Assembly (NCBI GenBank): GCA_947455515.1
Contig: CANGOF010000001.1
Span: 5,049-69,048, forward strand
DNA: 64,000 bases
From: Flavobacteriia bacterium
GTDB lineage: Bacteria > Bacteroidota > Bacteroidia > Flavobacteriales_D > Crocinitomicaceae
Direction of reading: 5' to 3'
Shown here: positions 17,956 through 44,327 of the stretch, in pieces
How the letters are laid out: every line of letters begins with the position of its first letter
How positions within the stretch are numbered: the stretch's first letter is position 1
Program-made: the position numbers and the translations under genes
The notes under the pieces: model-generated
Database searches by the model: none
Seen by the model: the letters and a program-made list of their open reading frames with translations, nothing else
What the model was told of the DNA's origin: nothing

Positions 17956-17975
17956 TCAAAAAAAGTAATTTCATT

Positions 17976-23578: not shown

Positions 23579-24577
23579 GTGAAAAAAATACTTCTATTAC
23601 TATTCTTCTTAAGTTACTTGTCTATCTATCAGGCGCAAGATGTTCATTGGTCTCAAATAAATGAAAATGAACTTTATCAAAACCCAGCTAATACAGGTGA
23701 TTTCCATGGTGATTTTCGAGCATCAGTAAGCACCAAAGATCAATGGAGAAATGTGACAAAGCCTTATCAAACTCAAGCAGTAACTTTTGACATTATCAAT
23801 AAATATGATAGAAAATTAGGTTACGGAGGTTTATTTCTTCATGATGTTACCGGAGATGGTATATTTAGAACAATTGAAATGAAATTAACTCCTGCATATA
23901 CCCTATATCAAAATACAATAAAAAAACAAAAAATTAGGATAGGTATTGATTTAGATTATAAATACAATCAAATGAACTTCTCCAACTACACATTTGATAA
24001 TCAATTCAATGGATTAATATATTCATCGATATTGCCTTCCAATGAAAATTTTACCACCCAACAAAAGTCATTATTTTCAATTGGTACTGGAATAACTTTC
24101 ACTAAAGAAGTTAGCGTTAAATTCCATCTAAAAACTGGTTTAGCAGTTTTTAATATTAATCAAGCAGATCAAGGGTTTTACAACATAAAAACACCTAGAT
24201 TAAGACGGTCACACTTCTTTGTTCAATCCACCTATATTATTTCTCCTAAAATAACACTAATTCCAAGTTTCAATCTTCAATTACAAGGAACCTACTCAGA
24301 AATTATCCTTGGTAGTAAATGCCAATTTAAATCAATCAATTTTTTACCATCTTATCTTTTAATCGGAGGAATCTATTTTAGAAACAAAGACGCAATATTT
24401 ACCCAGATTGGTCTTAAAATAAATAAAATTACTACCACAATAAATTATGACATCAATGTTTCAAAACTTGCAAAAGCTAGTAATGGTCGTGGCGGTCTTG
24501 AAATTAATTGTCAATACATCTGGACAAGAAAAGAAGCAAAAAATTTAATGCATAAAAAATGTTTAGATTACCTATAG
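23579..24577 (+). CDS. PorP/SprF-family type IX secretion system membrane protein
   Basis: Signal peptide, then the family N-terminal signature QDVHWSQINENELYQNPANTG (D.hfSQy....lNPA..G). Beta-barrel-like remainder. GTG start in the track. Confidence 0.8.
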   Translation: MKKILLLLFFLSYLSIYQAQDVHWSQINENELYQNPANTGDFHGDFRASVSTKDQWRNVTKPYQTQAVTFDIINKYDRKLGYGGLFLHDVTGDGIFRTIEMKLTPAYTLYQNTIKKQKIRIGIDLDYKYNQMNFSNYTFDNQFNGLIYSSILPSNENFTTQQKSLFSIGTGITFTKEVSVKFHLKTGLAVFNINQADQGFYNIKTPRLRRSHFFVQSTYIISPKITLIPSFNLQLQGTYSEIILGSKCQFKSINFLPSYLLIGGIYFRNKDAIFTQIGLKINKITTTINYDINVSKLAKASNGRGGLEINCQYIWTRKEAKNLMHKKCLDYL

Positions 24578-26523
24578 TAATATTGAGTCTATGCCTTTCA
24601 ACGTTTTGTTGGGGACAATCTTCGATTAGAGAATTGAAGTTTAAAGCTCAATCAAATAAAGAGCAAGGAGATTATTTAGAAGCATCTTTATACTTTGATT
24701 CTATTTTACAGCGCGACAGTTCAATTCTAGACGTATTGAACGACTATTCCGATGTACTGATACAATCTAAAAATTTTTATAAAGCAAAAATAATTATCGA
24801 AAAGCTAACATTGTTAGATAACAAACATAAAACAGAACCAAATTCAAGTTTAAAATTAGGTTTAATTTATAAACAATTAGGAGACTATGAAAAAGCTATC
24901 AATACATTCAGTAACATCATTTCTAACAAGATAAAAGTAGATTTTCCGAGTATTTATAATAAAGCAAATAGAGAAGTAGAATCTTGTAACTGGGCGATTG
25001 AAAATCTGAAAGACACTCTAAAATATACACTTAATAAAATTCATGGAATTGCAAGTAAGGATTCCGAATTTGGTCATTCAGTGATAGGATCTCAATTAAT
25101 TATTAGCTCATTAAAATGTGCGAACTGCGATACAATTAATGGATTTTTAAGTGAAAACTATACAAACAAATTATATGCTGTCAATAAAAATACTGGGAAA
25201 AACTTAAAAGAAATTAAAAGTTTAAATTCAACAGTTAAACATTCTGCTAATGGTTCATTCAATCATGATAAAACAAAATTTTATTATTCTAGTTGTTCGA
25301 CGAAAACTAACAAGTGCAAAATTTTAGTAAGCAACTATAAAAAAGGAGTATGGTCAATTCCTGACACTTTATTTGGTGAAATAAACAGTTCTGAAGCTAC
25401 CTATACTATGCCAGCAACAGGAAAGATAAATAATACTGAATATCTTTTTTTCTGTTCTGATAATAAAAATAGTTTGGGTGGTTTAGATGTTTTTTACGGA
25501 CAAATAAGCGATAAATTAATTGATCAAGTCAAGCCTATTACCTATATCAACACAGTAGAAGATGAAATAAGTCCATTTTTTGATGACAGTAGCTCAACTC
25601 TTTATTTTTCATCGTCTTGGCACAATGGATATGGTGGTTTTGATTTGTTTAAAACGCAATTTCAACAGGATATAGAAAATGAAATATTAAATTTAGGAAT
25701 TCCTTTTAATAGTTCAAATAATGACACTTATTTAATAAAAGATTCCTCAATTTTTTTTGTAACGAGTAATCGAAATCATAACTCTATTAATAAATCATGC
25801 TGTAGTGATATTTACGTATTTAAACCAATTATTCAAAAAAATATTGATACTATTTCTATGGTTACAAAAATAGATTCATCAAATCAATTAATTGTACAAT
25901 TAGGTATATCAAACCATCTTAAAAACATTTCAACACTTGAGCAACTTATTCCTGTTTCCCTATATTTTCATAACGATATGCCAAACCCTAATACACTTGA
26001 CAGTGTTACACACGTGAATTATTTGGAAACATACATTGATTATAACAAACTACTTCCTCTTTATCAATTTAAATACTCGCAAGGAACAACTGGAAATCAA
26101 AACGAATTATCAAAAAAAGAAATTACCAGTTTTTTTACTAATGAATTGCAAAATGGGAAAAAAGAGTTAGATGACTTTTTAGAAATTTTAGAAGTAGAAT
26201 TAAAAAATGGGGCATCCTTTGATTTAATTTTCAAGGGTTTTGCAAGTCCACTTTCTCTAAGTTACTATAATAAAATACTAAGTAAACGAAGAATTAGTTC
26301 TGTAAGAAATTATATCGGTTTCTATAAAAATGGTGCGTTATTAAAATATATGATTGCTGAAAATGACAAAGATGCTCGGCTTCAAGTTAAAGAAGAACCA
26401 TTTGGCGAATATAAAACAGATAAAAATGTGAGTGATAATCCAAATGATACAAAAAACTCTATATATTCAAAAAAAGCAGCATTAGAAAGAAAAGTAGAAA
26501 TAATTGGATTCAAAATTCGATAA
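24559..26523 (+). CDS. TPR / PD40 (TolB-like beta-propeller) / OmpA-like domain protein
   Basis: Signal peptide, TPR region (GDYLEASLYFDS, GDYEKAINTF) and PD40-type repeats ending GGLDVFYG and GGFDLFK. Divergent C-terminal OmpA-like motif GFASPLSLSYYNKILSKRRISSVRNYI...ERKVEI. 19-nt overlap with the PorP/SprF gene. Confidence 0.7.
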   Translation: MFRLPIVILSLCLSTFCWGQSSIRELKFKAQSNKEQGDYLEASLYFDSILQRDSSILDVLNDYSDVLIQSKNFYKAKIIIEKLTLLDNKHKTEPNSSLKLGLIYKQLGDYEKAINTFSNIISNKIKVDFPSIYNKANREVESCNWAIENLKDTLKYTLNKIHGIASKDSEFGHSVIGSQLIISSLKCANCDTINGFLSENYTNKLYAVNKNTGKNLKEIKSLNSTVKHSANGSFNHDKTKFYYSSCSTKTNKCKILVSNYKKGVWSIPDTLFGEINSSEATYTMPATGKINNTEYLFFCSDNKNSLGGLDVFYGQISDKLIDQVKPITYINTVEDEISPFFDDSSSTLYFSSSWHNGYGGFDLFKTQFQQDIENEILNLGIPFNSSNNDTYLIKDSSIFFVTSNRNHNSINKSCCSDIYVFKPIIQKNIDTISMVTKIDSSNQLIVQLGISNHLKNISTLEQLIPVSLYFHNDMPNPNTLDSVTHVNYLETYIDYNKLLPLYQFKYSQGTTGNQNELSKKEITSFFTNELQNGKKELDDFLEILEVELKNGASFDLIFKGFASPLSLSYYNKILSKRRISSVRNYIGFYKNGALLKYMIAENDKDARLQVKEEPFGEYKTDKNVSDNPNDTKNSIYSKKAALERKVEIIGFKIR

Positions 26524-27970: not shown

Positions 27971-28360
27971 CTAAGCATTTTGTATTGTAAAAGCTATTTC
28001 AGCTAATTCATTTGAAGTAATTGATAATTTAGGTGAGCTAAAATTCATATCTGCTATAGAATTAATTGGTACCAAATGAATATGAGCATGCGGAACTTCT
28101 AAACCGATTACTGTTATTCCAATTTTTTTACACGGAAAAACCTTTTTTATTTTATGTGCAACCTCTTTACTGAATACCATCATTTTCCCTAACAGATCAT
28201 CTTCAATATCAAATATATAATCAATTTCTAACTTAGGAATAACCAACACATGTCCTTTGGTTAAAGGTTGAATGTCTAAAAATGCCAAAAAATCATCATT
28301 TTCAGCAACTTTATAGCAAGGAATTTCCCCTAAAACAATTCTTGAAAATAAAGTCGCCAT
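27971..28360 (-). CDS. HIT-family (histidine triad) nucleotide hydrolase
   Basis: 129 aa. IPCYKVAENDDFLAFLDIQPLTKGHVLVIPK and histidine triad HAHIHLVP. Confidence 0.88.
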   Translation of the reverse strand: MATLFSRIVLGEIPCYKVAENDDFLAFLDIQPLTKGHVLVIPKLEIDYIFDIEDDLLGKMMVFSKEVAHKIKKVFPCKKIGITVIGLEVPHAHIHLVPINSIADMNFSSPKLSITSNELAEIAFTIQNA

Positions 28361-28833
28361 TATCTTGAGATCTCCATTATTTCAAACTGAATAATACCAT
28401 TGGGAGTAGTAACATCAGCCAATTCACCAAGTTTTTTACCTAAAAGACCTTTTCCAATTGGCGAGTCAATAGATATCTTTTTAGCTTTCAAATCCGCCTC
28501 GTTTTCAGCAACAATCGTATACTCCATTTCCATACCGTTAGAAACATTTTTAATTCTAACTTTCGTTAATATAAAAACTTTTGAAGTATCAATAGTAGAT
28601 TCATCTATCACACGAGCATTAGCAAGAATTCCTTCCATTTTAGAAATTTTCATTTCTAATAAACCCTGTGCTTCTTTAGCTGCATCATATTCAGCATTTT
28701 CAGATAAATCACCCTTGTCTCTAGCTTCAGCAATCTGATCTGAAATTGCAGGTCGCATTACAGTTTTCATTTCGTGTAATTCATCACGTAATTTTTTTAA
28801 TCCTTCTTCTGTGTAATAAGTAACTTGTGACAT
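28360..28833 (-). CDS. greA: Transcription elongation factor GreA
   Basis: 157 aa. Coiled-coil N-terminus with DLSENAEYDAAKE and a C-terminal ISIDSPIGKGLLGKK motif. Confidence 0.93.
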   Translation of the reverse strand: MSQVTYYTEEGLKKLRDELHEMKTVMRPAISDQIAEARDKGDLSENAEYDAAKEAQGLLEMKISKMEGILANARVIDESTIDTSKVFILTKVRIKNVSNGMEMEYTIVAENEADLKAKKISIDSPIGKGLLGKKLGELADVTTPNGIIQFEIMEISR

Positions 28834-28848
28834 ATTCCTTGCTTATAT

Positions 28849-28877
28849 AAAAAAAGTAGAGAGCCAATAGACTCTCT
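28849..28877 (-). terminator. Rho-independent terminator closing the TBDR-like / 1409-aa / PorV-like operon
   Basis: Minus-strand hairpin AGAGAGTC-TATT-GGCTCTCT (8 bp including one G-U), followed by AC and a 7-U tract. It sits 24 nt after the PorV-like stop. Confidence 0.65.
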
Positions 28878-28900: not shown

Positions 28901-29992
28901 CTATTTTAAACTAATTGTAACCCCAAAAGTATGAATTGCTCCAAATGGGTTTGACATACGAACAGCATATTCTAAACCTATTGCCGATTCCTTTTTAACC
29001 CCTTCGGCTGTAGTTTTACGAGAAATTAAATCAATAGACATACCGGCTGTAAGTCCTGTCAATGCATTTGTTCTATTTGATGAACTTAATAGATTCTTTT
29101 CATAAACATATCCAGCTCTTAAATTAAATGCAGCAATTCCAGTATTAAATAAATAATCTAAACCCAAGCGGTATTGATCATTAGAAAATGAATTAGCAGT
29201 AAAAGCAAAAGCAGCAGTAAATTTATTGTCAGAAACAGTATCGTTGATAATATCATAGGAAACTCCCATGGACATCATTGATGGCAATTCATATTTTTGA
29301 GAACGTTGATCCGTCGTAATGGCATTCCCCGTTTTAGTTACGGTAACCTGAGTTCCTAAACCATCACCATTCATAGACAGTGGGGAACCAATGTTTTTCA
29401 ATGTGATACCCATTTTCATACGATCTAATTTACCTGTAACATATTTTATACCAGCATCGACAGCTACGCCACTAGATCCAAGGTTTGAAACTGATTCTGA
29501 CAAAACCTTTATATTAATACCTCCTGAAATAGATGGTATAAAAGATTTTGCATAACCTAAATTTATAACTGTCATGTTAGGTGAAAAAGTTCCGATTCCA
29601 CCTTCGGGATTATCAACAGTAGTATACATAACTTTACCGAAAGTCATCGCTTGAACACTCATTGCTATTACGCTAGTTGAACTAATTCTTTGAGCAAAAC
29701 CAGCACTTGAAAAAGGAACACTTGCACTACCTAACCAATTTGTAAAATTAAATTTTAACTGTGTTTTTCCTGTTTGTGCTAATCCAGCAATGTTGGTAAA
29801 AGTAGCTTCTAAACCAGAAGAGCTTGCAACATTTGCATCACCTAAAGCCGCAGAACGACACCAAGGATTAATCAACAACTCAGATGCACCAGCGGAACCG
29901 GCACGATCTTCATTCCCAGCAAATAAAGTAGCTGAAAGAGAGAACAAAACAGAAAACAATCCTATTTTATTAACGTAAACTAAATTTTTCAT
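28901..29992 (-). CDS. PorV/PorQ-family outer-membrane beta-barrel protein
   Basis: Signal peptide. N-terminal GSAGASELLINPWCRSAALGDANVASSSGLEATFTNIAGLA follows the PorV/PorQ pattern (..fL.i...aRaaamGdA.vA.s.....f.NPAgla). The rest shows alternating barrel-strand character and ends in ..ISLK. Confidence 0.6.
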   Translation of the reverse strand: MKNLVYVNKIGLFSVLFSLSATLFAGNEDRAGSAGASELLINPWCRSAALGDANVASSSGLEATFTNIAGLAQTGKTQLKFNFTNWLGSASVPFSSAGFAQRISSTSVIAMSVQAMTFGKVMYTTVDNPEGGIGTFSPNMTVINLGYAKSFIPSISGGINIKVLSESVSNLGSSGVAVDAGIKYVTGKLDRMKMGITLKNIGSPLSMNGDGLGTQVTVTKTGNAITTDQRSQKYELPSMMSMGVSYDIINDTVSDNKFTAAFAFTANSFSNDQYRLGLDYLFNTGIAAFNLRAGYVYEKNLLSSSNRTNALTGLTAGMSIDLISRKTTAEGVKKESAIGLEYAVRMSNPFGAIHTFGVTISLK

Positions 29993-30011
29993 AATAATCT
30001 TAATTAAACTA

Positions 30012-33000
30012 TTAAATGTTCTCTAAATCAATTTGTCTTACTCCACCAAAGAACTTAATTACAGTTTCTCCAACGCCTGGAACTTCCACATGAATTAGAT
30101 AAACCCCACTAGCAATTGGAATAGCCAAATTGTTTTTCATATCCCAATCAATATAATAAACTCTTTTTTCAGTTTCATCAGCAGTATGGTCTATTTTGAA
30201 TGTACGAATTAATTTACCACTCAAGTTATAAATATTCACATTACATTTAGCAGGCAAATTTGTAATCTTTACACGAGTATCTAATCTGTTTTTTTCATAC
30301 TCAGAGTAAGCATAATAAGGATTTGGTACAACATTAACTAATGACAACTCATTTTTTCTTTGATCCTGACTTGCTACTTCAGTAGCAATTTCATCCATAG
30401 ACCATCCATACATTGGTTGCCCATTATTTTTACCAGTAGCAACATAGTCATTGTATTGTTTAGCTAATCTAGTTTTAATTACAACATCTGTAGAAAGTAA
30501 TTCTTTATTTTTTGATAAGATAGGATTAACAACCCATAACAAGCTGGTATAAGCATTTACTAAAGAGTTAATATCACCTAATTTAAGGTTATCGTATACC
30601 CAATTGTTAACACCATCATAGAAAGGACAGTTTCTATTTTGATTAGCGTAGGAATGAACTTTTACACCAAAAATATAAATAGGATGCTGCCCCCCTAAGT
30701 GAGGTTGACCATTATCATCGTACAATACATTAGAAGGATTCCAAATCATATCACGACCATTGTCTTTAAATAAGAAAGAATTCTCCCCAAAAGCCATGTG
30801 TAAACGAACACCAGTTTCAACATCAATAGCGTAACCAGGAAACCAACCCATTCCTGAAGAACCACTTATAATGTTACCGTTTTTGTCAACACTAGCTCCT
30901 TTACGTAACATTCCCGCTTCCGCACCACCTTCAGTAAGTGAAGGATTTCTACCTAATTCAATAACTGCACATCGAGTCCATTTACTTGTATCTGAAGTTA
31001 TAACTAAATCTATACTTGGCGTTCTTATAATAGAAGCTTTTTCTCTCAAGTCATCTCTATAAGAAGGTGATGCAATAGAACTTGGATATGCAAGCGGCAT
31101 ATATTCAGATTGGTAACCAACTAAACAATGCGGAGCAATACCACCACCTAACAATTTGGAATATTTTTGATCTTTATCCAACCAAACCTGAGCTGGATGT
31201 ATAGAATTATCCGCACCATAAGATGCATCTGGAAAATAGAATGGATTGTTATACCCTAATTTAGGATTATTATCTGTAGGTAAAATTTGATGACTACCTG
31301 AACGAATCCAGTTGGATGGATTATATGCATCATTATCATTAACGAAAGACAACCATTTTTTAGTGGAATCAGCAAAATTAATAGTAGCTGAAATTGGGTC
31401 AGAATACTGTCTGTATTCATAAGTAGAACTCATATTAGCATCTAATTTTACATAATTAGTTTGCGTTATCTGAACGGAAACTCCCCATTTTGGAATCAAC
31501 TGTTCATTATTTACAGCAATTGTATTTTCAGAAAGTACTGAATCTAATAACACGCCGCCATTTTTACTATTATATTGGTAAATAACCCAAGATGCTGTAT
31601 CCACAGCATCATTATTAATCGCATCATTGGTTTGGTTACTTGCAACTTTATAATTTCTGAATTTACATTCAAAATATCCCTTAGCTAAATTTAAAGGATC
31701 AATTACCTTTATATTTAAAGGTCCTTTGCCATAATCGTAGGTTGGATTTTCAAATTTACCTTTCGAAATTATTTGATCTAATGAGCTTTTAACCAACTCT
31801 ACAGCTCTTCCTCCATTTCCTCTACCATCTAAACGAGTAATTTGAGGTGTATAACCAAAATCTGCTTTTTTAACAACATTTTCAGCTATAGGTTTATGAG
31901 GAATAGACATTACGGGATTAATTTTCCCTCCATCGTAACCAGTTCTTGACATGATAAATGGAATTTTTTGACCATCTGTAAAACCAGGCTCATCAGGAAT
32001 GTATGTTTTATAATTATTATATGCATAAGCTACAGCTATGTAATAATACGATTTATTATTCGCAAGGTTTGTATTTGTGAACAAATCAGTTTTAACTGAA
32101 AAACTATGTTTGATACCTTGGTCGTTACCTTTGACTTTTAAGATAGGAACCGAAATTCCAAAATCTTCATCAAATTCATAATTAATAATTTTTGATACCC
32201 CATTTTTGATATCGCATTGAGCAACTAATCGAGCATTATCTGTATTATACAAATCAGTTGATGAAACCTTCTCAGATTTAGCTTGGTAAATCATATATCC
32301 TTCAAAATGGTAGAATTTATCCTTATAACTTGGATCAATGGATACATCTTTTTGTATATAATTCTCACCAACGTTATTAGATGGCTTAGGATTACTGAGT
32401 GTTAAAATCAATTCTTTGTCCAATTCTTGAACCGATAATTTAGGAGCACTTGGTGGTTCCAATATTTTAAAACAATTATCAAATAATTGTTGTGCTTTCG
32501 TATCTGCCACTCTTAAAGAATTTACAGAAGCTAACAACCCACTTTCCGTACTACGTGCATAAACTATACCAACGGTAATGTTATTGATTGCCCCTGGTTT
32601 AAGTGTAAAAGGTCCAGCAGATTGAACAAAACGTCTGTCACCTTTAGGATTACCTTCTGAAATTTCAGACCAATCTTTTTGACCTGGATTAATACCGGCT
32701 GTACTCCAATTTAATGTATCTGAATCACCAGGGAACATATAGTCAGCAGGAATTGTAGTTACCTTTGGACCGCCAGGAAATCCAGAACCTCCAAACATTG
32801 TTTTATCACCAAATCTCCACTTACCATTCATGTAGTTGTAAAACTGACCAGCAGTAGAAGGGTCAGTAACCGATTGATTCGAAGAACCTGAACCAGTGTA
32901 GTAAGTAAAGCGTTTCATACCATAACGTTCATTATCCACTATACCATCCCCATAACCAATCCCTAAACCAGCGTAAACGATACCTTTATTTGCGATAGCA

Positions 33001-34241
33001 ACTTGAACGGTAGGTTTTGTAAAATTTCCGGATTTGTCAAAATGAGGGCCAGGATTGTCTATTCCATCAGCATCTTGATATGGACCTTCAAAGAAATCTA
33101 CCCCGATTGCAGGAGGATTTGCTCCATAACCTAATTTACCTGCAAATGATTCGTCATTATCATCCGCATTGTAACAGAATCCCAAACCACGAGTAACATC
33201 ACAACCTACATAATCATCACTATAGTTACCCAAGTCTGGATCGACATATTGCGCAAAATAGGTGTTGTATAATGTTTGTGTACTTCTATTAATCATTTCA
33301 TAATTATAGAAAGTCATACGGTTAATTTGATCTGTTGTAGTAAAGGTAAAAGCTTGTGCACGAATTTCCATCCCAATTGGCTCACCATTTGTTTCTGTGT
33401 GAATGTTTCCCTTATCATTAAAAATCCACCAGTTTGTTTCGTCTCCAAATAAAGAAACACGACGATCGCTACCACAAATAATATCATCTTTATTTAAGAT
33501 ATCATCGTACCAAGGATAATCTCCGTCATTTAATGGATCGTACCAACCATCTTTACCATCCTTACATTCTGCATTGTCATAAAAAGGAGCTAAATAATGA
33601 TCTTGAAATAACGTTTCATCCCCATGTGCAGGCCAAGAATAAATACGATTTAACACTTCATTCGATGGTGTACTAACAGTTAAACATAAATCAGTGTTTG
33701 ATTTCAATCCTTTACAAGCTTCCCACCAAGTTGCGAATTGAATTACTTCTGCTTTTCGAATAGTGAAAAATTTATCGTAAGCTTCACATTCTTTAGTACC
33801 AATGTTCGCATCCCCAAAATCCTTTACTGAATTATCGCCTAATGGAACTTTAGGATTATAATTACCACTATTTGGTTTTGAAGTTAAAGGTCCAGTCCAA
33901 AAGTCATTTCCAGTTGAACGGTATTTTTGAGCAGCGATTTTTAATTGATTATTCACATCAACTCCCCCCATCCATAAAGACGCTGCATAAATTGCCGTCA
34001 ATCCTGTATGTGCAGGTACTTCATACGTACCAATACCATTTGATCTATCTAAGAACAACATTCCACCAGTTTCTAACAAAGCACTAACGTCATTAAACGA
34101 CAAACGAAGCGTTGTACTTGATGGAGCACATCCGGATTTATTTACGTGTTTTTGTGCATTTCCTTTTTTTCCGAAATCATAATCGTACGAAAAACCTATT
34201 GTGCTAAGCGTAAAAGATAACGCGATTACTAAATATTTCAT
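30012..34241 (-). CDS. 1409-aa secreted protein with a T9SS C-terminal sorting domain; body of unknown function
   Basis: N-terminal signal peptide. The last ~90 aa (VVPNPYYAYSEYE..RVKITNLPAKCNVNIYNLSGKLIRTF....WDMKNN..IPIASGVYLIHVEV...GETVIKFFG) follow the Por_Secre_tail/FlgD-Ig-like pattern. I recognise no catalytic motif. Confidence 0.6.
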   Translation of the reverse strand: MKYLVIALSFTLSTIGFSYDYDFGKKGNAQKHVNKSGCAPSSTTLRLSFNDVSALLETGGMLFLDRSNGIGTYEVPAHTGLTAIYAASLWMGGVDVNNQLKIAAQKYRSTGNDFWTGPLTSKPNSGNYNPKVPLGDNSVKDFGDANIGTKECEAYDKFFTIRKAEVIQFATWWEACKGLKSNTDLCLTVSTPSNEVLNRIYSWPAHGDETLFQDHYLAPFYDNAECKDGKDGWYDPLNDGDYPWYDDILNKDDIICGSDRRVSLFGDETNWWIFNDKGNIHTETNGEPIGMEIRAQAFTFTTTDQINRMTFYNYEMINRSTQTLYNTYFAQYVDPDLGNYSDDYVGCDVTRGLGFCYNADDNDESFAGKLGYGANPPAIGVDFFEGPYQDADGIDNPGPHFDKSGNFTKPTVQVAIANKGIVYAGLGIGYGDGIVDNERYGMKRFTYYTGSGSSNQSVTDPSTAGQFYNYMNGKWRFGDKTMFGGSGFPGGPKVTTIPADYMFPGDSDTLNWSTAGINPGQKDWSEISEGNPKGDRRFVQSAGPFTLKPGAINNITVGIVYARSTESGLLASVNSLRVADTKAQQLFDNCFKILEPPSAPKLSVQELDKELILTLSNPKPSNNVGENYIQKDVSIDPSYKDKFYHFEGYMIYQAKSEKVSSTDLYNTDNARLVAQCDIKNGVSKIINYEFDEDFGISVPILKVKGNDQGIKHSFSVKTDLFTNTNLANNKSYYYIAVAYAYNNYKTYIPDEPGFTDGQKIPFIMSRTGYDGGKINPVMSIPHKPIAENVVKKADFGYTPQITRLDGRGNGGRAVELVKSSLDQIISKGKFENPTYDYGKGPLNIKVIDPLNLAKGYFECKFRNYKVASNQTNDAINNDAVDTASWVIYQYNSKNGGVLLDSVLSENTIAVNNEQLIPKWGVSVQITQTNYVKLDANMSSTYEYRQYSDPISATINFADSTKKWLSFVNDNDAYNPSNWIRSGSHQILPTDNNPKLGYNNPFYFPDASYGADNSIHPAQVWLDKDQKYSKLLGGGIAPHCLVGYQSEYMPLAYPSSIASPSYRDDLREKASIIRTPSIDLVITSDTSKWTRCAVIELGRNPSLTEGGAEAGMLRKGASVDKNGNIISGSSGMGWFPGYAIDVETGVRLHMAFGENSFLFKDNGRDMIWNPSNVLYDDNGQPHLGGQHPIYIFGVKVHSYANQNRNCPFYDGVNNWVYDNLKLGDINSLVNAYTSLLWVVNPILSKNKELLSTDVVIKTRLAKQYNDYVATGKNNGQPMYGWSMDEIATEVASQDQRKNELSLVNVVPNPYYAYSEYEKNRLDTRVKITNLPAKCNVNIYNLSGKLIRTFKIDHTADETEKRVYYIDWDMKNNLAIPIASGVYLIHVEVPGVGETVIKFFGGVRQIDLENI

Positions 34242-34268
34242 GGTTATGTATTTTAAGTAATATTCTTA

Positions 34269-37200
34269 TTAAAAATCAAATCTAACTCCCAAACGAATGG
34301 TACGTGGCGAACTTATATTGAAAGCATTTTGAACTTTCATTGTATAATAATCTCTAAACGATTTCTCGTCATATTGATTTTGAATGGATTGTTGAAATTG
34401 AGATGCAGCTAAATATCCATCATCATTCCAGTTACCTGTAGCTCTATAAACATTAATTACGTTAAATTGATTTAATAAATTTGTTGCTCTAATGTATACA
34501 TTTAAGAAAACAGTTTTATCTTTATTTAAAGTTGCATCACCAGCAGTTGCGGATCTATCTTTGATTTTTATTTCAATATTTCGATCTAATTGTATATCCA
34601 TTCTGTATGACCAAGGTTTACGTGAACCATTCAATGTACCTGTCATACCAGATGCTAATGGACTAATTGCCGCAGCATTTGTAATTGTAGACTGAGAAGA
34701 ATAAGGATTACCAGAATAAATATTTGAAGTTATATTAATACCAGTATTTTCAAATAATTTAATACCTGCTATCTCTGGACCATTGTATTTTTTACCACTT
34801 CCATAACGGTAATCAGTTACGATGTTAAATTGATGTCTTGTATCGTAATCATAAGGAAAGATATTACGAAGGTTTGGTTGACCCGCATTAATAAATGAAG
34901 CCACAGAAGCTGCATCTGTACCAGTTCCATCCGCAAATTGCAAGGTATAGTTTGCTGTTAACCTAATGTTTCCTGTTCTTCTCAAGTCATATGCAATTGT
35001 TAATCCTTTTACTGTACCAAAATCTCTGTTTCCGTATGTTTTGTATGCTTTTGGATAAGCCTCAAACATATTTATTAATTGTACTTGATTACGTTGTTCT
35101 CTATAGTAAGAAGAAATTTTAATAGAGGAACTTGCAGATAATACTTGTTGGAATCCCAATTCATAATCAATAGTTGTTTCAGGTTTCAAGTTAGGATTAT
35201 TGATTGTTGGGGAAGAAGTAACAGCTAAAAATTGGTACTCTGTTGGATCAAATCGAGTTGCAGTAGTTGGGCGTTTCGTTAATATATCATAATGTGCGAA
35301 GAATAATGCTTTATCTGAAATAGGAAATGAGAATGAAAAACGAGGCATAAAGTTCACCTGAGGTTTGTAAGCTTCAAATGCTGAAGCATTAATTGTTTTT
35401 ACATTAGGATCCGTTAACCAAGGAGAAATTCCTCCAGGTCCTTCCAAAGATTTAGGATTCTCAACTGGAACACCTTGTGCATTATACCAAGTTGAACCTG
35501 AACGGTACCCCATTATCGACGTTGGGTTTTTAATATCGTTTACATAGACCACATAATTATCACCCATTGTGGATGGAATAATACTATTTTTACTGTCATC
35601 TGCTAACCAAGTATGCGTGGTTGGTTCTTTACTGTAAATCGCTTTTGCTTGAGCTACAGTATTTGCATTAAATAATAAATAAGGATCTTTAAGAACAGGT
35701 TGATTTGCATCAAATGCATCAATACGAAGACCTACGTTAAAAATTAAATCATTTACAGAAAATTTATCCATAATATAACCAGCTACATAAATTGGTTGAA
35801 ATGCACCTATTGCACGTTTATAGTTACCATGCTCATCAAATTTTGTAAAATAATCATTGATATCGGTTTTACCATACGTTTTATTTCCAGCAACGTCGTA
35901 TCCATAGTAAGATATCAATTTATTTCCTTGGTTCATTAATTCATCTGCTGAGAACATATCAACGGAAAGTAGACTTGGGTCAATTCTATCTAAATCAACA
36001 TACGAATTATTTGCACCACCACCTGGTAGGTGTAGTTTATTTCTCAAATTAAAATCAAAAAAAGATTGATTTTCTTGCATTGTTGAATCACCTCCTGAAA
36101 ATTTAGTACGAGCATAATCCCCACCAAAAACTCCATTATGGTGATATGCGTACCCAGAATTTAAGTTATCATAATTAATTTGCTTATAATTTCCCATGTT
36201 GATAACATGACCTTGCGTAGTATCTAATGATTTATTATGGAAGTTTGTTAGTTGCCTTGCAATTGTCCATAAACTTGCCGGATTTGAAACACCCCAAGAT
36301 CTATCAAATCGTTGCTCAAATTCAAAACCTAAGGAAATTTTATGGCCACCTATTACAACATTTCCATTACCAGTAACACGGAATTGTTCGTTTTGAGATT
36401 TACCCATATAACTATAAGGGGTTCCAATGTTATTCCATAAATCATATACGTTATTTGGAGAATCTCCATTAAATAAAGCGTTACCTTGTTGCACTTGTTG
36501 TCTATTTTCTGTGTGCCCTGAAGGATTGTTTGCATAAATAGAAAAATATTGAGAAGTGATTGCTGCCAAAGATGGATTATAAATTGACGGAGTAAAATCA
36601 ACTTTCGTTTCTTGCCAAGAATTTTGGGATTCTACAAGAGTACTGTAATTCATTTTGTATGTAGGAATTCTTGTTGTAGCAAGCGTTCCTACATGACCAT
36701 ACTCAAAAGCATTGTACTTAAATCTATTATCGTAATAATTACCAGTACTACTTGAATAATCTACCATCAAAGTATAACTTGCACTTTTAATTAATGCACT
36801 AGAATCGTTAAAATCAAAACGTTGACTTAAACGTCCATACACCCTGAAGTCAGAAGTTATTGCATCTCCAAAATTTGTAAAATTTAATAAGGAACTTCTA
36901 TAATTATATTCCTTTCCGTTATTATAGTTAAACGTTCCACCAAAAGTCAAGTTAATTGTAGGACCTAATTTCACGTCCACTTTAGCATTAGAAGTAAATG
37001 TAGATTTTCTTGCATTCATTCTCCAAGCATTTTGCTCAAAATCGGAAGAACGTAAAAAATTCGCAGCATGTAATGGAACTTTACCATCTGGCTGAGCAAC
37101 CAAAGGATGTGCCAAAATTTCGTCTCTTACTTCTTTTTTTATCCTATACCCACCTCCGTTTGCCAAAGGACGATCATCTAATTGATCCGTGTAATTTGCA

Positions 37201-38153
37201 GAAATTAAAAAACCTAATAATGGCTTATCTTTATTACCTAATGAATCTTTTGTAAATAATAAAGGACCAGAAAGCATACCTTCTGCTAAATTGTACCCGT
37301 ACTTATCTAAACCAAACACTTTACCATCGTAACCATTTGCATCTTTCCCTTTAAAATACAAGCCTGAACTTACAATTTCGGCACTTCCAAAATATTTAGA
37401 AGAAGGACCACGAGTTGTTACAGAAATAATACCTCCTGTAGCATCTCCATAATTCGCTGGAATACCTCCTGTCATAACCGAAACTTCTTCTAAAGCACTT
37501 TTAGGCAAATTCAATCCTCCACGAACTTTAATATTATCAATATAAGTATAACTTGTACCTTCTCCAGTACCAGATCCACGCATACTAATTTTACCATCGC
37601 CTTCATTTGTATTTGCACCAGCCATTGTAGCTACAACTCCTTCAATACTACGTGTTGGTAATGCAGCAATTTCTTCTCTTGTTTTTGTGTCTCCAGAAGG
37701 ACCACCATCCCTTTCAATAAGTGGTTTTTTATAAATCTTAACCACAGTTTCTGTTAACATTTTTTCTTTTTCTTTTGCAGTCAAAGGCTTCGCTCCTGGT
37801 TTAGTTTCCTCTTCTAATTTCGGTTTATTCAAATAAAAGGTTTCTGGATAATTAATTTTATTTCCAGAAACAACAAAACCTTCCAATTTCACATCTTGAT
37901 AACCATCTATGGTTTTAGAAACGATAATATCATATGTTCCTGCAGGAATCTCACCCATACGAAATTCTCCATTAAAATCCGTTTTGGCGATTCGAACAGT
38001 TTCTGTCCCTGACTTCAACAACACTTTAGCGTCAAAAATCGCTTCCGTTTTATTAACACCATCCATTACAGTTCCTATAATTTCATTCTGAGAAAAACTA
38101 TAAGCTACTGACAAAAAAACAGTTGCAACTAATAAAGAGAGCTTACGTACCAT
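34269..38153 (-). CDS. Outsized TonB-dependent-receptor-like outer-membrane protein (CarboxypepD_reg + plug + very long barrel)
   Basis: Signal peptide from the ATG at 38153 (MVRKLSLLVATVFLSVAYSFSQ). Prealbumin-like domain (IIGTVMDG...FNGEFRMGEIPAGTYDIIVS) and plug (ISMRGSG...IDNIKVRGG...VSVMTGGIPANYGDATGGIISVTTRG). C-terminus RTIRLGVRFDF. Confidence 0.75.
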   Translation of the reverse strand: MVRKLSLLVATVFLSVAYSFSQNEIIGTVMDGVNKTEAIFDAKVLLKSGTETVRIAKTDFNGEFRMGEIPAGTYDIIVSKTIDGYQDVKLEGFVVSGNKINYPETFYLNKPKLEEETKPGAKPLTAKEKEKMLTETVVKIYKKPLIERDGGPSGDTKTREEIAALPTRSIEGVVATMAGANTNEGDGKISMRGSGTGEGTSYTYIDNIKVRGGLNLPKSALEEVSVMTGGIPANYGDATGGIISVTTRGPSSKYFGSAEIVSSGLYFKGKDANGYDGKVFGLDKYGYNLAEGMLSGPLLFTKDSLGNKDKPLLGFLISANYTDQLDDRPLANGGGYRIKKEVRDEILAHPLVAQPDGKVPLHAANFLRSSDFEQNAWRMNARKSTFTSNAKVDVKLGPTINLTFGGTFNYNNGKEYNYRSSLLNFTNFGDAITSDFRVYGRLSQRFDFNDSSALIKSASYTLMVDYSSSTGNYYDNRFKYNAFEYGHVGTLATTRIPTYKMNYSTLVESQNSWQETKVDFTPSIYNPSLAAITSQYFSIYANNPSGHTENRQQVQQGNALFNGDSPNNVYDLWNNIGTPYSYMGKSQNEQFRVTGNGNVVIGGHKISLGFEFEQRFDRSWGVSNPASLWTIARQLTNFHNKSLDTTQGHVINMGNYKQINYDNLNSGYAYHHNGVFGGDYARTKFSGGDSTMQENQSFFDFNLRNKLHLPGGGANNSYVDLDRIDPSLLSVDMFSADELMNQGNKLISYYGYDVAGNKTYGKTDINDYFTKFDEHGNYKRAIGAFQPIYVAGYIMDKFSVNDLIFNVGLRIDAFDANQPVLKDPYLLFNANTVAQAKAIYSKEPTTHTWLADDSKNSIIPSTMGDNYVVYVNDIKNPTSIMGYRSGSTWYNAQGVPVENPKSLEGPGGISPWLTDPNVKTINASAFEAYKPQVNFMPRFSFSFPISDKALFFAHYDILTKRPTTATRFDPTEYQFLAVTSSPTINNPNLKPETTIDYELGFQQVLSASSSIKISSYYREQRNQVQLINMFEAYPKAYKTYGNRDFGTVKGLTIAYDLRRTGNIRLTANYTLQFADGTGTDAASVASFINAGQPNLRNIFPYDYDTRHQFNIVTDYRYGSGKKYNGPEIAGIKLFENTGINITSNIYSGNPYSSQSTITNAAAISPLASGMTGTLNGSRKPWSYRMDIQLDRNIEIKIKDRSATAGDATLNKDKTVFLNVYIRATNLLNQFNVINVYRATGNWNDDGYLAASQFQQSIQNQYDEKSFRDYYTMKVQNAFNISSPRTIRLGVRFDF

Positions 38154-38342
38154 ATCTAAAAAAATTAAATTTTTTATAAATTGAGAACTATTCACACGAA
38201 AAGTGCAAAAAATCAAATGCAAAGAAAGTAGAAAAAAACCGGTTAACAAAATTTAACTTATAATTTCTTTTAAACAATTTTAACAATTCGTTAAAATGTA
38301 GTGTGTGTAATTTTCACAATCTTCTTATTTCTTTTTTGTATG

Positions 38343-38350
38343 TAATTTTG
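38343..38350 (+). promoter_or_regulatory. Bacteroidetes-type -7 promoter box (TAATTTTG)
   Basis: Exact TAnnTTTG match only 5 nt upstream of the ATG at 38355. Confidence 0.35.
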
Positions 38351-38354
38351 TGTT

Positions 38355-41125: not shown

Positions 41126-41129
41126 TACA

Positions 41130-41494
41130 AAGCAAGCCAAACTATCGCCTGTAGAAATACAGGAGGAAAGTCTGGGCAGTATAGAGCGCCGTACTTCCTA
41201 ACGGGAAGGACTGAGAAATCAGGACAGAAAGTGCCACAGAAAGGAAAACTACCAAAAGCAATTTTGGAAAAGGTGAAAAGGTGAGGTAAGAGCTCACCGT
41301 GTTTTTGGCGACAAAAACTGCAAGGTAAACCTTACGGACTGAAAGACCATGTAAACTGGGGCGTTATGCAAATAACGAATGGTTGCTCGCTAAACTCAGA
41401 GGGTAGGTCGATGGATCTTAAGAGTGATTTTAAGACTAGATAAATGATAGTTATTCGTGAAAACGATACACAGAACCCGGCTTATGGCTTGCTT
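41130..41494 (+). ncRNA. rnpB: RNase P RNA, bacterial type A
   Basis: Universal blocks GGAGGAAAGTCTGGGC, AGTGCCACAGAAA, GGTAAGAGCTCAC and ACAGAACCCGGCTTAT. P1 stem aagcaagcca (41130-41139) pairs with tggcttgctt (41485-41494). Ends are approximate to a few nt. Confidence 0.9.
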
Positions 41495-41520
41495 TTATTT
41501 AAAAACAAAATAACAGAAAC

Positions 41521-41550
41521 AAAAAAAGGTGTCTAATTAGACACCTTTTT
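41521..41550. terminator. Bidirectional rho-independent terminator between rnpB and tRNA-Phe
   Basis: Palindrome ggtgtcta/tagacacc (41528-41545) flanked by A7 (41521-41527) and T5 (41546-41550), so it reads as hairpin plus U-tract on both strands. Confidence 0.7.
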
Positions 41551-41554
41551 ACTG

Positions 41555-41627
41555 TGGGAGCGGAGGGAATCGAACCCCCGACACAAGGATTTTCAGTCCT
41601 TTGCTCTACCGACTGAGCTACGCTCCC
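41555..41627 (-). tRNA. tRNA-Phe (anticodon GAA)
   Basis: Minus strand: GGGAGCG-TA-GCTC-AGTCGGTA-GAGC-A-AAGGA-CTGAAAA-TCCTT-GTGTC-GGGGG-TTCGATT-CCCTC-CGCTCCC-A. Full 73-nt cloverleaf, 7-bp acceptor stem, CCA not encoded. Confidence 0.92.
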
Positions 41628-41716: not shown

Positions 41717-42451
41717 ATGAAAGCGAACTTAAAAACAACTTTGGTAATAGATGCTGGTAATACACGCATTAAAGTGGGTGTATTTATTGAGGAACAATTA
41801 AAAGAAATTTTTTATTTTGGAAACCAAGAATGGGGACAATTAAAGACATTTTTATTAGAATATCATTTTGACCAATCCATTCTTTCATCTGTTCGTTCGG
41901 AAAAAGAAACAACATGGTTATTACAAATGATGCCAAATTCTATTTATTTTAAAAATGAAGGAGAACTTCCATTTAGTCATAACTATAGAACTCCAAACAC
42001 ATTAGGAAGTGATCGAATAGCTAACATAATAGGTGCAACTAAACTTTCCAATACAGCGAACTTAATAATTGATATTGGAACCTGCATAAAATTTGATTTA
42101 GTTGATCAAGAACACATTTATCAAGGCGGGTCTATTTCTCCTGGAATAAATTTACGTTATCGATCATTATCTGAATTCACAGGTGCATTACCATTAATCG
42201 AAGATTATACAATCCCTCCTGTTATTGGCACATCTACAAATGAATGTATACAAAGTGGTGTAATGTTAGGAATTCAGAGTGAAATTGATTGTTTCATACA
42301 ACACTATGAAAAGCAATATGAGACAATAACAATTTTTGTTACAGGAGGTGACGCACATTGTTTTGATATCCAAGCAAAAAACGGCATATTTGTAGAGTTA
42401 AATTTAACTTTAATCGGATTATATTATTCATTAGGTACCTATGCTTCTTAA
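41717..42451 (+). CDS. coaX: Type III pantothenate kinase
   Basis: ASKHA-fold motifs LVIDAGNTRIKVG, LGSDR and VTGGDA. 244 aa. Confidence 0.9.
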   Translation: MKANLKTTLVIDAGNTRIKVGVFIEEQLKEIFYFGNQEWGQLKTFLLEYHFDQSILSSVRSEKETTWLLQMMPNSIYFKNEGELPFSHNYRTPNTLGSDRIANIIGATKLSNTANLIIDIGTCIKFDLVDQEHIYQGGSISPGINLRYRSLSEFTGALPLIEDYTIPPVIGTSTNECIQSGVMLGIQSEIDCFIQHYEKQYETITIFVTGGDAHCFDIQAKNGIFVELNLTLIGLYYSLGTYAS

Positions 42452-43775
42452 AATCATACTATTAAGTCTATTTATTTCGCCTTTTATTTTGATTGGACAA
42501 ACGAATACAAACAACCCATTCACATCAAGAGGTTTAGGTGAACTAAATCCATTAAGTCATTCTATATTTGGAGGACTAGGAAATGTAAGTACGCCACTTA
42601 TTGATTCAGCACAATTAAATTCAGAAAATCCATCTTCATATTCTTTTTTAGGAAAAGGTCAACCGATTTTTTCTATTGGATTAACATCCTCTTTTTCTAA
42701 TTTCAAACAAAATTCACTTACAAGCATTGCTAATTTCATCTCATTAAATCACTTTACTTTAGGTATGTCAGTTAGTAATCGCTTCGGAATATGTTTTGGG
42801 TTAAAACCTTATTCGAGCACTGGTTATCAACTAAAAGGAGATCAGATTTCAGGAGTTGATACACTACATTACTCATACAGTGGTAGTGGGGGTTATTCAA
42901 ATGCATATTTTGGATTTTCCTACAAATTACTCCAAATTCATAAACATACTGTTTCTTTAGGTACAAACATTGGTTATATTTTCGGTGTAGCTACAAATGA
43001 AATAGTTACAAGTCTTTCAAGTTCATCCATAGGTGGTATACGAGAGCGTACGCAACAAATTAAATCTGCCAATTTTGATTTTGGTGCCAGTTATCAGTAC
43101 AAAATAAATCGGGATCACGCTTTTGTTTTTGGTGGTACCTATAGTCCATCACAGTTGTATTCAACAGTAAACACCAATTCTTTAATCTATGCATTAAGTA
43201 CAAGTAACGTTTTAGGAAACGATACTTTAAAATACATTAAATCCATAGGGAACATACATTCTCCTTCTATTTATTCCGTAGGATTTAAGTATGATTTCAC
43301 ACAAAATAACAAATCAAATCGAAACTCAGATCGATCACCTCAATTACAGCTAAGTGGAGAGCTGAGAATGGTTGACTGGAAAAGTTATTCAACGACACAA
43401 ACAACCACCGATTTATTGTACAGTACTATTCAATATGGTATAGGATTTCAGTTTGCGCCACATTACGATTTCTTAGACCGTTCCAAAAACATCAATTTAA
43501 TACATCGAATGAAATATCGAGTTGGAGCAGTTTATCAAACGTTACCATGGAAAGATAATAACGTCCAATTAACAAACAAAGCAATTACATTTGGTTTTGG
43601 TATCCCAATTATCAGCCAATTTTCCTCTTCATCCATTAACATTAGTTGTTTATACGGACAAAAATGGAATGGAAATGTGGCTACTTTAAAAGAGAATTAT
43701 TTGACGGTTAACTTTGGAGTTAATATTACACCAGCAAGTTATGAACGATGGTTTAAGAAAAATAAAATTGATTAG
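42441..43775 (+). CDS. Predicted outer-membrane beta-barrel protein, function unknown
   Basis: Signal peptide and a long run of short alternating hydrophobic/polar strands rich in G, S, Y and N. No specific family recognised. Confidence 0.45.
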   Translation: MLLKIILLSLFISPFILIGQTNTNNPFTSRGLGELNPLSHSIFGGLGNVSTPLIDSAQLNSENPSSYSFLGKGQPIFSIGLTSSFSNFKQNSLTSIANFISLNHFTLGMSVSNRFGICFGLKPYSSTGYQLKGDQISGVDTLHYSYSGSGGYSNAYFGFSYKLLQIHKHTVSLGTNIGYIFGVATNEIVTSLSSSSIGGIRERTQQIKSANFDFGASYQYKINRDHAFVFGGTYSPSQLYSTVNTNSLIYALSTSNVLGNDTLKYIKSIGNIHSPSIYSVGFKYDFTQNNKSNRNSDRSPQLQLSGELRMVDWKSYSTTQTTTDLLYSTIQYGIGFQFAPHYDFLDRSKNINLIHRMKYRVGAVYQTLPWKDNNVQLTNKAITFGFGIPIISQFSSSSINISCLYGQKWNGNVATLKENYLTVNFGVNITPASYERWFKKNKID

Positions 43776-43781
43776 TTCTAC

Positions 43782-44327
43782 ATGAAACATTGGGCTTATT
43801 TAATTCTTGGTGCGTTTTTATTTTTTATTTTCATTTCATGTGAAAATGATTTAAGTACAATAAAAAAAGTAAGCTTTAAGCCAACAGATCCTGACGAACG
43901 AACTTCAAATGTACACATGATACAAACGGATAGTGGATTTGCCAAAATTGAATTAAAAGCAAAGCTATCAGAGACGTATTACAAGCCAAAAACAAGAATA
44001 AAATTTAGAAAAGGAATTGAAATCACACTGTACAATCAAGCTGGAAAAGTTGAATCTGTCTTGAGTTCAATGTATGGAGAAATAATACAGGAGACTGGAC
44101 AGATGAAATTTAAAGATTCTGTAAGATTAAGAAATATTAAAGAGAATCAAATATTAGAAACAGAAGAACTTCATTGGAATCAGAATACTCAGGCTGTATT
44201 TACTGATAAATCAGTAATTGTAAAATCAAGTGATGGTAGTCTATTTTATGGAGATGGTATTAAAACTTCTTTAGACTTTAAACAATATGAATTTATCAAA
44301 CCAAAAGGAAAATTTAAAATAGATTAA
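43782..44327 (+). CDS. lptC: LptC-like LPS export periplasmic protein
   Basis: N-terminal anchor/lipobox-like FISC, 181 aa, OstA/LptC-like beta-jellyroll pattern (..MIQTDSGFAKIELKA....; ETEELHWNQNTQAVFTDKSVIV). The position after coaX is common in Flavobacteriia as far as I recall. Confidence 0.55.
   Translation: MKHWAYLILGAFLFFIFISCENDLSTIKKVSFKPTDPDERTSNVHMIQTDSGFAKIELKAKLSETYYKPKTRIKFRKGIEITLYNQAGKVESVLSSMYGEIIQETGQMKFKDSVRLRNIKENQILETEELHWNQNTQAVFTDKSVIVKSSDGSLFYGDGIKTSLDFKQYEFIKPKGKFKID

Follow-up and report, generated by a model that had tools for sequence, protein, structure and literature searches.

What unites, in a single set of genes, an oversized TonB-type outer-membrane barrel, a giant secreted protein and a barrel related to two type IX secretion system (T9SS) proteins, PorV and PorQ? 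The question arises from a 64,000-nt stretch of DNA (hereafter, the window) from a Flavobacteriia bacterium of the Crocinitomicaceae (GenBank assembly GCA_947455515.1, contig CANGOF010000001.1, positions 5,049 to 69,048 of the forward strand), in which three adjacent minus-strand genes, here called g1, g2 and g3, encode these proteins in the order given. In waters, soils and guts, it is chiefly the Bacteroidota that turn over polymers, and they do so by way of two systems that are hallmarks of their envelope, SusC-type TonB-dependent transporters and the T9SS. We find that g1, g2 and g3 form one operon whose arrangement recurs in loci labeled as three orders of this phylum. The g2 protein probably docks on g3, and, in the reading that we tentatively favor, g2 is exported by the T9SS, docks permanently on g3 and serves g1 as a surface partner for TonB-powered uptake.

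A conserved three-gene operon

Since the intergenic gaps measure only 27 nt (g1-g2) and 19 nt (g2-g3) and a single terminator follows g3, the three genes form one operon; neither gap contains a hairpin. This layout of open reading frames (ORFs) agrees with the one described in a first-pass annotation of the window, and the terminator that it had judged good proves to consist of an 8-bp stem (28877-28858), 24 nt past the g3 stop codon, and a subsequent T7 run, with a folding energy of -12.1 kcal/mol (z = -3.0 relative to shuffled sequences). The full ORF of g1 extends over positions 34269-38249 (minus strand); the ATG at 38153 was chosen as its start, which gives a protein of 1294 residues with a signal peptide and is consistent with the N-termini of its orthologs. 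Upstream of g1, across 201 nt, lies a divergent 4'-phosphopantetheinyl-transferase gene. The region had been annotated as a divergent promoter region of about 200 nt, and its length and the divergent gene stand, while the promoter is a presumed one: a scan for sigma-70-type promoters returned 46 matches, compared with 47.7 expected by chance, and the exact TAnnTTTG (-7) motif of the Bacteroidetes is absent from the 201-nt region.

Gene order was compared in 109 loci from genomes and metagenomes (cited by L numbers where a locus has to be singled out), the first 105 of which were tallied by tblastn and the last four from called genes. A scan of genome collections, using patterns taken from one protein, reached close relatives only. 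Taxonomic breadth was read, with caution and at the level of orders, from the labels of metagenome-assembled genomes (MAGs). Several record titles are unreliable, with L003, L007 and L010-L012 being titled 'Chryseobacterium gleum', 'Chitinophaga pinensis' or 'Candidatus Planktophila lacus' (an actinobacterium). Of the 67 loci with a flank of at least 4.3 kb, 52 had g1 as the immediate upstream neighbor of g2, and g3 followed g2 immediately in 60 of 76 loci. The median gap was 22 nt between g1 and g2 (n=70) and 21 nt between g2 and g3 (n=67). The extended order g1-g2-g3-greA-HIT was found in 44 loci labeled Flavobacteriales, Chitinophagales or Bacteroidales. Its return on dozens of contigs unrelated to one another makes the arrangement more than a coincidence. 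Synteny, which the initial annotation had named as a check, is thus strong and reaches as far as the Chitinophagales and Bacteroidales labels.

The arrangement is kept in the Crocinitomicaceae and other Flavobacteriales, in Chitinophagales-labeled MAGs at 35-44% identity and in one Bacteroidales-labeled MAG. Homologs carry the labels Crocinitomicaceae, Flavobacteriales, Fluviicola (for g3), Lishizhenia, Chitinophagales, 'Sphingobacteriales bacterium UPWRP_1' and one Bacteroidales MAG. Between the Chitinophagales loci and the window, the three proteins have diverged in step (g1 37%, g2 35% and g3 38% identity), and across loci the identity values that g1, g2 and g3 show to their counterparts in the window rise and fall together (r 0.94-0.97). 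We rejected this co-variation as evidence for an interaction, because the correlation between g2 and greA is just as high (0.93), so that it reflects phylogeny.

The families of the three products

Profile searches with NCBIfam models place g3 in the PorV/PorQ family, whose signature had already been noticed in the initial annotation. The family model NF033709 scores 136.4 bits (cut-off 90), covering positions 4-325 of the 326 in the profile, and reaches 117-155 bits on g3 orthologs. By contrast, the equivalog models fail by wide margins, which rules out that g3 is a canonical PorV (NF033710: 60.5 bits, cut-off 250; orthologs 46-81), PorQ (NF033711: 82.7 bits, cut-off 220; orthologs 53-85) or PorV2 (NF052325: 28.2 bits, cut-off 325; orthologs 19-42). 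The possibility, raised in the first-pass annotation, that g3 is simply the canonical PorV of the genome therefore does not hold. The same pattern of passes and failures recurs in seven g3 orthologs from three orders. Since the family model passes and the equivalogs fail across these orders, g3 represents a distinct, fourth clade of the PorV/PorQ family. Its only match in the PDB, obtained with the family profile, is PorV of Flavobacterium johnsoniae (E 2e-18).

The g2 protein has 1409 residues and a Sec signal peptide as read from its sequence, and it lacks a lipobox, because no cysteine precedes residue 38, all as originally annotated. The PNP, GxY and K motifs of a type-A C-terminal domain (CTD), the sorting signal of T9SS cargo, are visible in its last 109 residues. 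Among 30 members of the g2 family, Por_Secre_tail (PF18962) matches 17 (best E 1e-8), FlgD_ig 22 and CHU_C one, and TIGR04183 (cut-off 23 bits) gives 27.0, 25.6 and 21.3 bits on g2 orthologs. The sole relative of the CTD in the PDB is PorZ of Porphyromonas gingivalis (5m11), found at E 0.077 with the family profile and at E 0.0013 with the CTD of one ortholog. The NCBIfam models for PorU (NF033707) and PorZ (NF052228) do not match the window g2 and touch its orthologs in the CTD region only, at 16-28 bits compared with cut-offs of 420 and 260, respectively. An identification of g2 as PorU or PorZ can thus be ruled out, its body being unmatched by either equivalog model.

The CTD is also the best-conserved block of g2. 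When Flavobacteriales and Chitinophagales sequences are compared in blocks of 100 residues, it reaches 53% identity, whereas the other blocks lie at 25-51%. By our reasoning, a protein should be under little constraint in a secretion signal that is discarded after export, less than in most of its other parts, and the conserved CTD therefore fits retention. This pattern suggests that the CTD is retained on mature g2 rather than cleaved and that it makes a specific contact. The family CTD is kept in every g2 paralog examined. A second g2 copy stands between g3 and greA in L001, L068, L075 and L095; the two copies of L001 (10001-14191 and 15526-19749) are 87% identical overall and 100% identical over the last 200 residues, with 97% identity at the DNA level over the last 420 nt, suggesting that their CTD ends have been homogenized.

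The body of g2 belongs to a large family with generic database names ('T9SS type A sorting domain-containing protein' or 'hypothetical protein'). A word-indexed search found more than 4400 homologs, the best 120 of which are 1375-1546 residues long and at least 54% identical over their full length, and an exhaustive search of representatives clustered at 50% identity returned 7012 clusters at E<=1e-3, with 1741 still found at E<=1e-30, most members being 1250-1550 residues long. Pfam and NCBIfam found nothing in the g2 body, even when the 30 members were searched individually at E<=1, and sequence and profile searches of the PDB retrieved no relative of the body but the PorZ CTD alone. The family has dozens of invariant polar residues, with many invariant Asp, Asn and Gly residues in the N-terminal domain.

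To obtain a view of its fold, residues 31-1229 of g2 were modeled with AlphaFold2, using an alignment of 82 sequences from two orders that were pairwise less than 70% identical; a first model, built from 30 close relatives, was discarded, as its predicted local distance difference test score (pLDDT) was 45. The final model, with a pLDDT of 88 and a predicted template modeling score (pTM) of 0.78 over 1199 residues, is mostly beta with few helices. A pTM this high over such a length argues for a compact body of several domains and not for a fiber. The best matches of the model in the PDB, as found by Foldseek, are all carbohydrate-active proteins, namely dextran dextrinase (E 6.5e-5), GH94 phosphorylases, GH116 and GH63 enzymes, polysaccharide lyases and a galactose mutarotase. 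Such enzymes have a beta-supersandwich domain in common, and an (alpha/alpha)6 barrel is the defining catalytic domain of the GH15-like, GH94, GH116, GH63 and GH65 families of glycoside hydrolases (GH) and phosphorylases. A search of BFVD, in turn, returned only Fn3-type proteins. An assignment of g2 to the supersandwich glycoside hydrolases or phosphorylases is not supported, given the lack of an (alpha/alpha)6 barrel in the model, the low template modeling (TM) scores of the matches and the lack of a Pfam GH match; at most, the resemblance is a weak hint that g2 may bind glycans.

The g1 protein combines an N-terminal CarboxypepD_reg-fold extension, a Plug domain and a putative barrel. Of the three signatures that had been annotated, Plug (PF07715) passes its Pfam cut-off (30.2 versus 23.9 bits), CarboxypepD_reg (PF13620) falls slightly short (31.4 versus 32.3 bits) and no barrel model is matched in a Pfam scan of the window protein. 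Among 11 orthologs, CarboxypepD_reg matches all (best E 5e-18) and Plug matches ten, while TonB_dep_Rec_b-barrel (PF00593, 4e-9) and OMP_b-brl_3 (PF14905, 6e-9) match one each. The family profile retrieves the plugs of Cir and PirA from the PDB (E 2e-9). Approximately 1050 residues follow the Plug, and the terminal Phe is present and conserved. Ahead of the Plug, the orthologs share the TonB-box-like consensus LxEVxVxAYKxPLI, which reads LTETVVKIY in the window.

In an NCBIfam search at E<=0.01, g1 matched no family and hence no SusC/RagA model, and its orthologs matched generic plug or barrel models only. Its identification as a SusC/RagA protein is ruled out by these profile scores, and the g2 gene downstream encodes a protein with neither a lipobox nor a SusD Pfam match; the 'SusC-like layout' of the first-pass annotation thus survives as a description of architecture, but not as a family assignment. 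Judging from its domains, g1 appears to belong to the TonB-dependent-transporter class, with a SusC/Oar-type layout outside every curated subfamily, and its order of PF13620 extension, Plug and barrel would be that of the Oar subclass. Two further observations concern its N-terminal half: more distant g1 orthologs retain IEEVVVVAYKVPLI at the TonB-box position, and in the window g1 and its closest relatives (L003, L007), extension and Plug are joined by a longer linker (37731-37860) with many Lys and Glu residues.

Possible roles of the module

SusC proteins are partnered by SusD, and the operon resembles SusC/SusD (RagA/RagB) loci in that g1 has a CarboxypepD_reg extension, a TonB-box-like motif and a plug and is directly followed by the gene of a candidate surface partner. 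It differs from them in the lack of a SusC/RagA match for g1, in the nature of g2, which is not a lipoprotein and not SusD-like but a predicted T9SS cargo of 1409 residues with a candidate barrel dock of its own, and in the lack of a linked regulator or glycoside hydrolase gene at the triad locus. Closer precedents for the pairing of g2 with g3 come from the T9SS itself. At the SprA translocon, PorV is the protein to which type-A CTDs bind. PorU and PorZ do not lose their CTDs and have PorV and PorQ as their anchors, and cognate PorV-like barrels have been proposed to shield CTDs from cleavage (PMC10202324, PMC12365241). Similar to the PorQ-PorZ and PorV-PorU pairs of P. gingivalis, the operon encodes a barrel of this family and a large predicted surface protein with a type-A CTD, whose retention would complete the analogy; unlike in these pairs, g3 fails the equivalog models, the g2 body is unmatched and a TonB-type barrel gene is added. 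Type-B cargo genes, such as that of SprB in F. johnsoniae, adjoin the genes of their own PorP/SprF shuttles, as in SprB-SprF, and such a dedicated barrel handles one cargo only and fixes its final location (PMC12618676). The neighborhood of a cargo gene and a dedicated-barrel gene is the same here, but the CTD of g2 is of type A (Por_Secre_tail) rather than type B, and g3 is a PorV/PorQ rather than a PorP/SprF protein.

Based on these precedents, the module may work as follows. The Sec machinery would carry all three proteins across the inner membrane, as suggested by the signal peptides read from their sequences. As expected from their family membership, g1 and g3 would insert into the outer membrane as beta-barrels, and g2, given the profile matches of its type-A CTD, would be exported by the T9SS in a CTD-dependent manner. 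The uncleaved CTD would then dock permanently on g3, acting as a dedicated PorV/PorQ paralog, in the way PorZ docks on PorQ and PorU on PorV; analogy, gene linkage and the unusual conservation of the CTD argue for this step. Extra g2 paralogs with the same CTD may share the g3 dock. On the cell surface, g2 would sit beside g1, the oversized TonB-dependent transporter, and fill the role of a SusD-like lipoprotein, capturing and perhaps processing a large, possibly glycan-bearing substrate that is imported through g1 in a TonB-energized manner. The suggested capture by g2 and import through g1 draw on three things only: where the genes stand in the operon, how g1 is built and the weak fold resemblance of g2. 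Thus, of the dedicated surface module envisaged in the first-pass annotation, the part concerning an own PorV-like anchor is well supported by the PorZ-PorQ and PorU-PorV analogy and by the CTD being the most conserved segment of g2, whereas the partnership with g1 is suggested by operon adjacency only.

Several observations weigh against this proposal. With TIGR04183, the window g2 itself scores 18.3 bits and thus remains below the cut-off, so that the T9SS CTD originally claimed for it is borne out by its orthologs and family rather than by this protein on its own. The Foldseek matches of the g2 model in the PDB are weak, with TM-scores of 0.1-0.2 and a resemblance limited to beta-sandwiches, and neither an (alpha/alpha)6 or other catalytic domain nor a binding site was seen in the model. 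In the closest relatives of g1, the TonB-box-like motif is degenerate (AAKIKTKKY in L003). The locus has no regulator, catabolic enzyme or inner-membrane transporter, unlike typical nutrient-uptake loci. Moreover, g2 is not always accompanied by its partners: a clade of orphan paralogs, about 47-48% identical to the window g2, lacks both g1 and g3 (L014, L046-L052, L054, L058-L063, L065, L069, L070), two or three g2 genes may also stand in tandem without them (L077, L104, L107, L108), and L056, L057 and L084 have g2 and g3 without g1. A search of the flanks of the orphan paralogs revealed no alternative barrel.

The housekeeping context and the lack of regulatory or catabolic genes would be less surprising if the triad were an accessory module of the T9SS, with a PorF-like g1, a PorQ-like dock g3 and a PorZ- or PorU-like g2, that processes, attaches or organizes the very large sets of T9SS cargo in these lineages. 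All three proteins are highly conserved, the CTD of g2 resembles those of PorZ and PorU, and Fluviicola, which has a g3 ortholog, encodes about 230 predicted CTD proteins (PMC10202324). TonB-receptor-type proteins have, in addition, been tied to the T9SS, functionally in the case of P. gingivalis PorF (PG0534), which is needed for normal T9SS output (PMC12704123), and physically in that of Cytophaga hutchinsonii CHU_1606, a TonB-dependent receptor that co-purifies with PorV (PMC8564354). Compared by description only, g1 is of the same general type, but CHU_1606 is a protein of 91 kDa, as opposed to the 1294 residues of g1, and neither it nor PorF has a reported link to a giant CTD protein or a PorV paralog; the two reports also disagree on the plug domain of PorF (PMC12704123, PMC8564354). 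Since the g2 body matches neither the PorU sortase nor PorZ, the likeness being weak and confined to the CTD region, the tandem and orphan g2 paralogs give the impression of a surface family that diversifies, not of a constant component of a machine, and the triad is unreported from the well-studied T9SS models, we consider an accessory role, the main rival reading, unlikely. The same paralog arrays, together with the size of g2, its T9SS targeting, its richness in beta-sandwich/Fn3-like domains and a PorP/SprF gene nearby in the window, could instead indicate a structural coat, adhesin or gliding protein that is held by g3, with g1 as an extra anchor or an independent protein. Yet the model of g2 is compact and globular (pTM 0.78, 1199 residues) rather than a repetitive fiber, its conservation (at least 55% identity over 1400 residues among hundreds of relatives, with dozens of invariant polar residues) far exceeds the level usual for coats and adhesins, and g1 retains a Plug and a TonB-box-like motif, which makes a purely structural role distinctly improbable in our view.

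There is, finally, little to be said for TonB-dependent export of g2 by g1 itself, in which g3 would receive the exported protein and the CTD-like domain would serve in docking only. The idea draws on the position of g1 immediately upstream of g2 and on its likeness in layout to Oar of Myxococcus xanthus, which combines a PF13620 extension, a Plug with TonB box and a barrel in this order and exports the protease PopC (PMC6434023). However, the cargo of Oar is a soluble protease, and Oar operates without a T9SS or a PorV-like partner, whereas the CTD of g2 falls into the T9SS type-A family and T9SS-associated genes are present in the window. Orphan g2 paralogs have the same CTD without an adjoining g1, and a folded g2 of 150 kDa would far exceed the known size of Oar cargo, so that we regard Oar-like export as very improbable. 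T9SS-exported g2, docked on g3 and serving g1, is the reading that we tentatively prefer.

Genomic context and significance

The features of the operon are listed in the table below. The G+C content of the window is about 30%, the nearest relatives of its proteins come from freshwater Crocinitomicaceae and other Flavobacteriales MAGs, and proteins identical to g1, g2 and g3 are encoded, without protein names, on one 113-kb public MAG contig. The neighbors of the triad are housekeeping genes. The adjacency of greA, a transcription factor gene, and the HIT-family gene to the triad is long-lived (including L001, L023, L025, L106 and L109), despite the terminator that stands between g3 and greA in the window. 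In L014 and L056, the upstream flank has a gene for an M28/LapA-like aminopeptidase.

Table. Features of the g1-g2-g3 operon and its immediate surroundings, in window coordinates; the limits of the g2 domains were read from the secondary structure of the model and are approximate.
Feature	Position	Strand	Description or basis
g1	34269..38153	-	1294-aa outer-membrane protein, predicted TonB-dependent-transporter class
g1 signal peptide (aa 1-22)	38088..38153	-	MVRKLSLLVATVFLSVAYSFS/Q, read from sequence; mature protein would begin with Gln
g1 CarboxypepD_reg-fold N-terminal extension (aa 25-98)	37860..38081	-	PF13620
g1 TonB-box-like motif LTETVVKIY (aa 133-141)	37731..37757	-	directly ahead of Plug; ortholog comparison
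g1 Plug (aa 156-242)	37428..37688	-	PF07715
g1 putative beta-barrel with very long loops (aa 243-1294)	34272..37427	-	family profiles; ends in ...RLGVRFDF
g2	30012..34241	-	secreted protein of 1409 aa, mostly beta, from a family without a name; T9SS type-A CTD
g2 large N-terminal beta domain with four-helix insert (~aa 38-592)	32466..34130	-	AlphaFold2 model
g2 two beta-sandwich (Fn3/Ig-like) domains (~aa 600-745, 760-925)	31467..32444	-	model; BFVD Fn3 matches
g2 C-terminal body domain, mixed (~aa 930-1300)	30342..31454	-	AlphaFold2 model
g2 near-invariant motif WFPGYAIDxExGxRLHMAFGENSF	30774-30845	-	in C-terminal body domain
g2 T9SS type-A CTD (aa 1301-1409)	30015..30341	-	TIGR04183, Pfam Por_Secre_tail, PorZ CTD 5m11
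g3	28901..29992	-	363-aa outer-membrane barrel of the PorV/PorQ family
Intrinsic terminator	28849..28877	-	closes operon after g3
Intergenic region, 201 nt	38154..38354		presumed operon promoter region
greA and HIT-family gene	27971..28833	-	conserved downstream neighbors; same order and orientation in three orders

Elsewhere in the window, a gene for a PorP/SprF-family protein is followed by one for a tetratricopeptide-repeat (TPR) protein that lacks an OmpA domain and resembles PorE only weakly, at its N-terminus (23579-26523, plus strand), and a TPR-PD40-OmpA protein resembling PorE/CHU_0125 is encoded at 60500-62647 (minus strand; 404 bits, cut-off 600). These PorP/SprF and PorE-like genes are signs that the organism may possess T9SS or gliding machinery. 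A BamG-like FadL-type barrel at 42441-44327 (plus strand) scores 207 bits with NF053685 (cut-off 250) and has no Pfam match; its gene, located directly upstream of an LptC-family gene, forms with it a second unusual outer-membrane pair in the window. Three consecutive ORFs of 497, 438 and 343 residues (16462-20310, plus strand) and one of 466 residues (52215-53615, minus strand) have no Pfam match and, apart from a marginal adenine-deaminase fragment in the ORF of 343 residues, no NCBIfam match. An RNase P RNA gene (class A, 255 bits) lies beside a tRNA-Phe gene on the opposite strand (41129-41627).

Full-text literature searches found no description of the g1-g2-g3 triad, in agreement with the initial annotation, which was aware of no described function for this combination. 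Of the four outcomes that this annotation had set as refuting its idea, concerning synteny, canonical PorV, the CTD profiles and earlier description, none clearly came about. The parts of the triad are of known kinds: a barrel of the TonB-dependent-transporter class, a cargo with a type-A CTD and a barrel from the PorV/PorQ family. New are the fourth PorV/PorQ clade and the constant company it keeps with a single family of giant cargo, for whose body no curated model exists, as well as the fixed linkage of this pair to an oversized TonB-type barrel and the age and spread of the arrangement. The operon thereby gives context to a family of about 7000 clusters (at 50% identity, 1300-1500 residues) whose body has no Pfam or NCBIfam model.

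TonB-dependent transport and the T9SS are usually treated separately, and the operon joins one element of each. If g2 is indeed held by g3, it would add a third natural case, next to PorU-PorV and PorZ-PorQ, of a CTD that stays on its cognate PorV-like barrel, and the triad makes the proposal that such barrels protect CTDs directly testable. It is conceivable, although rather doubtful at this stage, that the triad constitutes an old machine of the Bacteroidota, in which a TonB barrel works with a T9SS-delivered globular protein of about 150 kDa, mounted on a fourth type of PorV/PorQ barrel. It would then be a lipoprotein-free counterpart of SusCD in which TonB-dependent uptake and type IX secretion, both signature systems of the phylum's envelope, meet in a single complex. 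Should the link to the transporter prove true, abundant freshwater and marine bacteria would have a means of arming a TonB-dependent transporter that does not require SusD.

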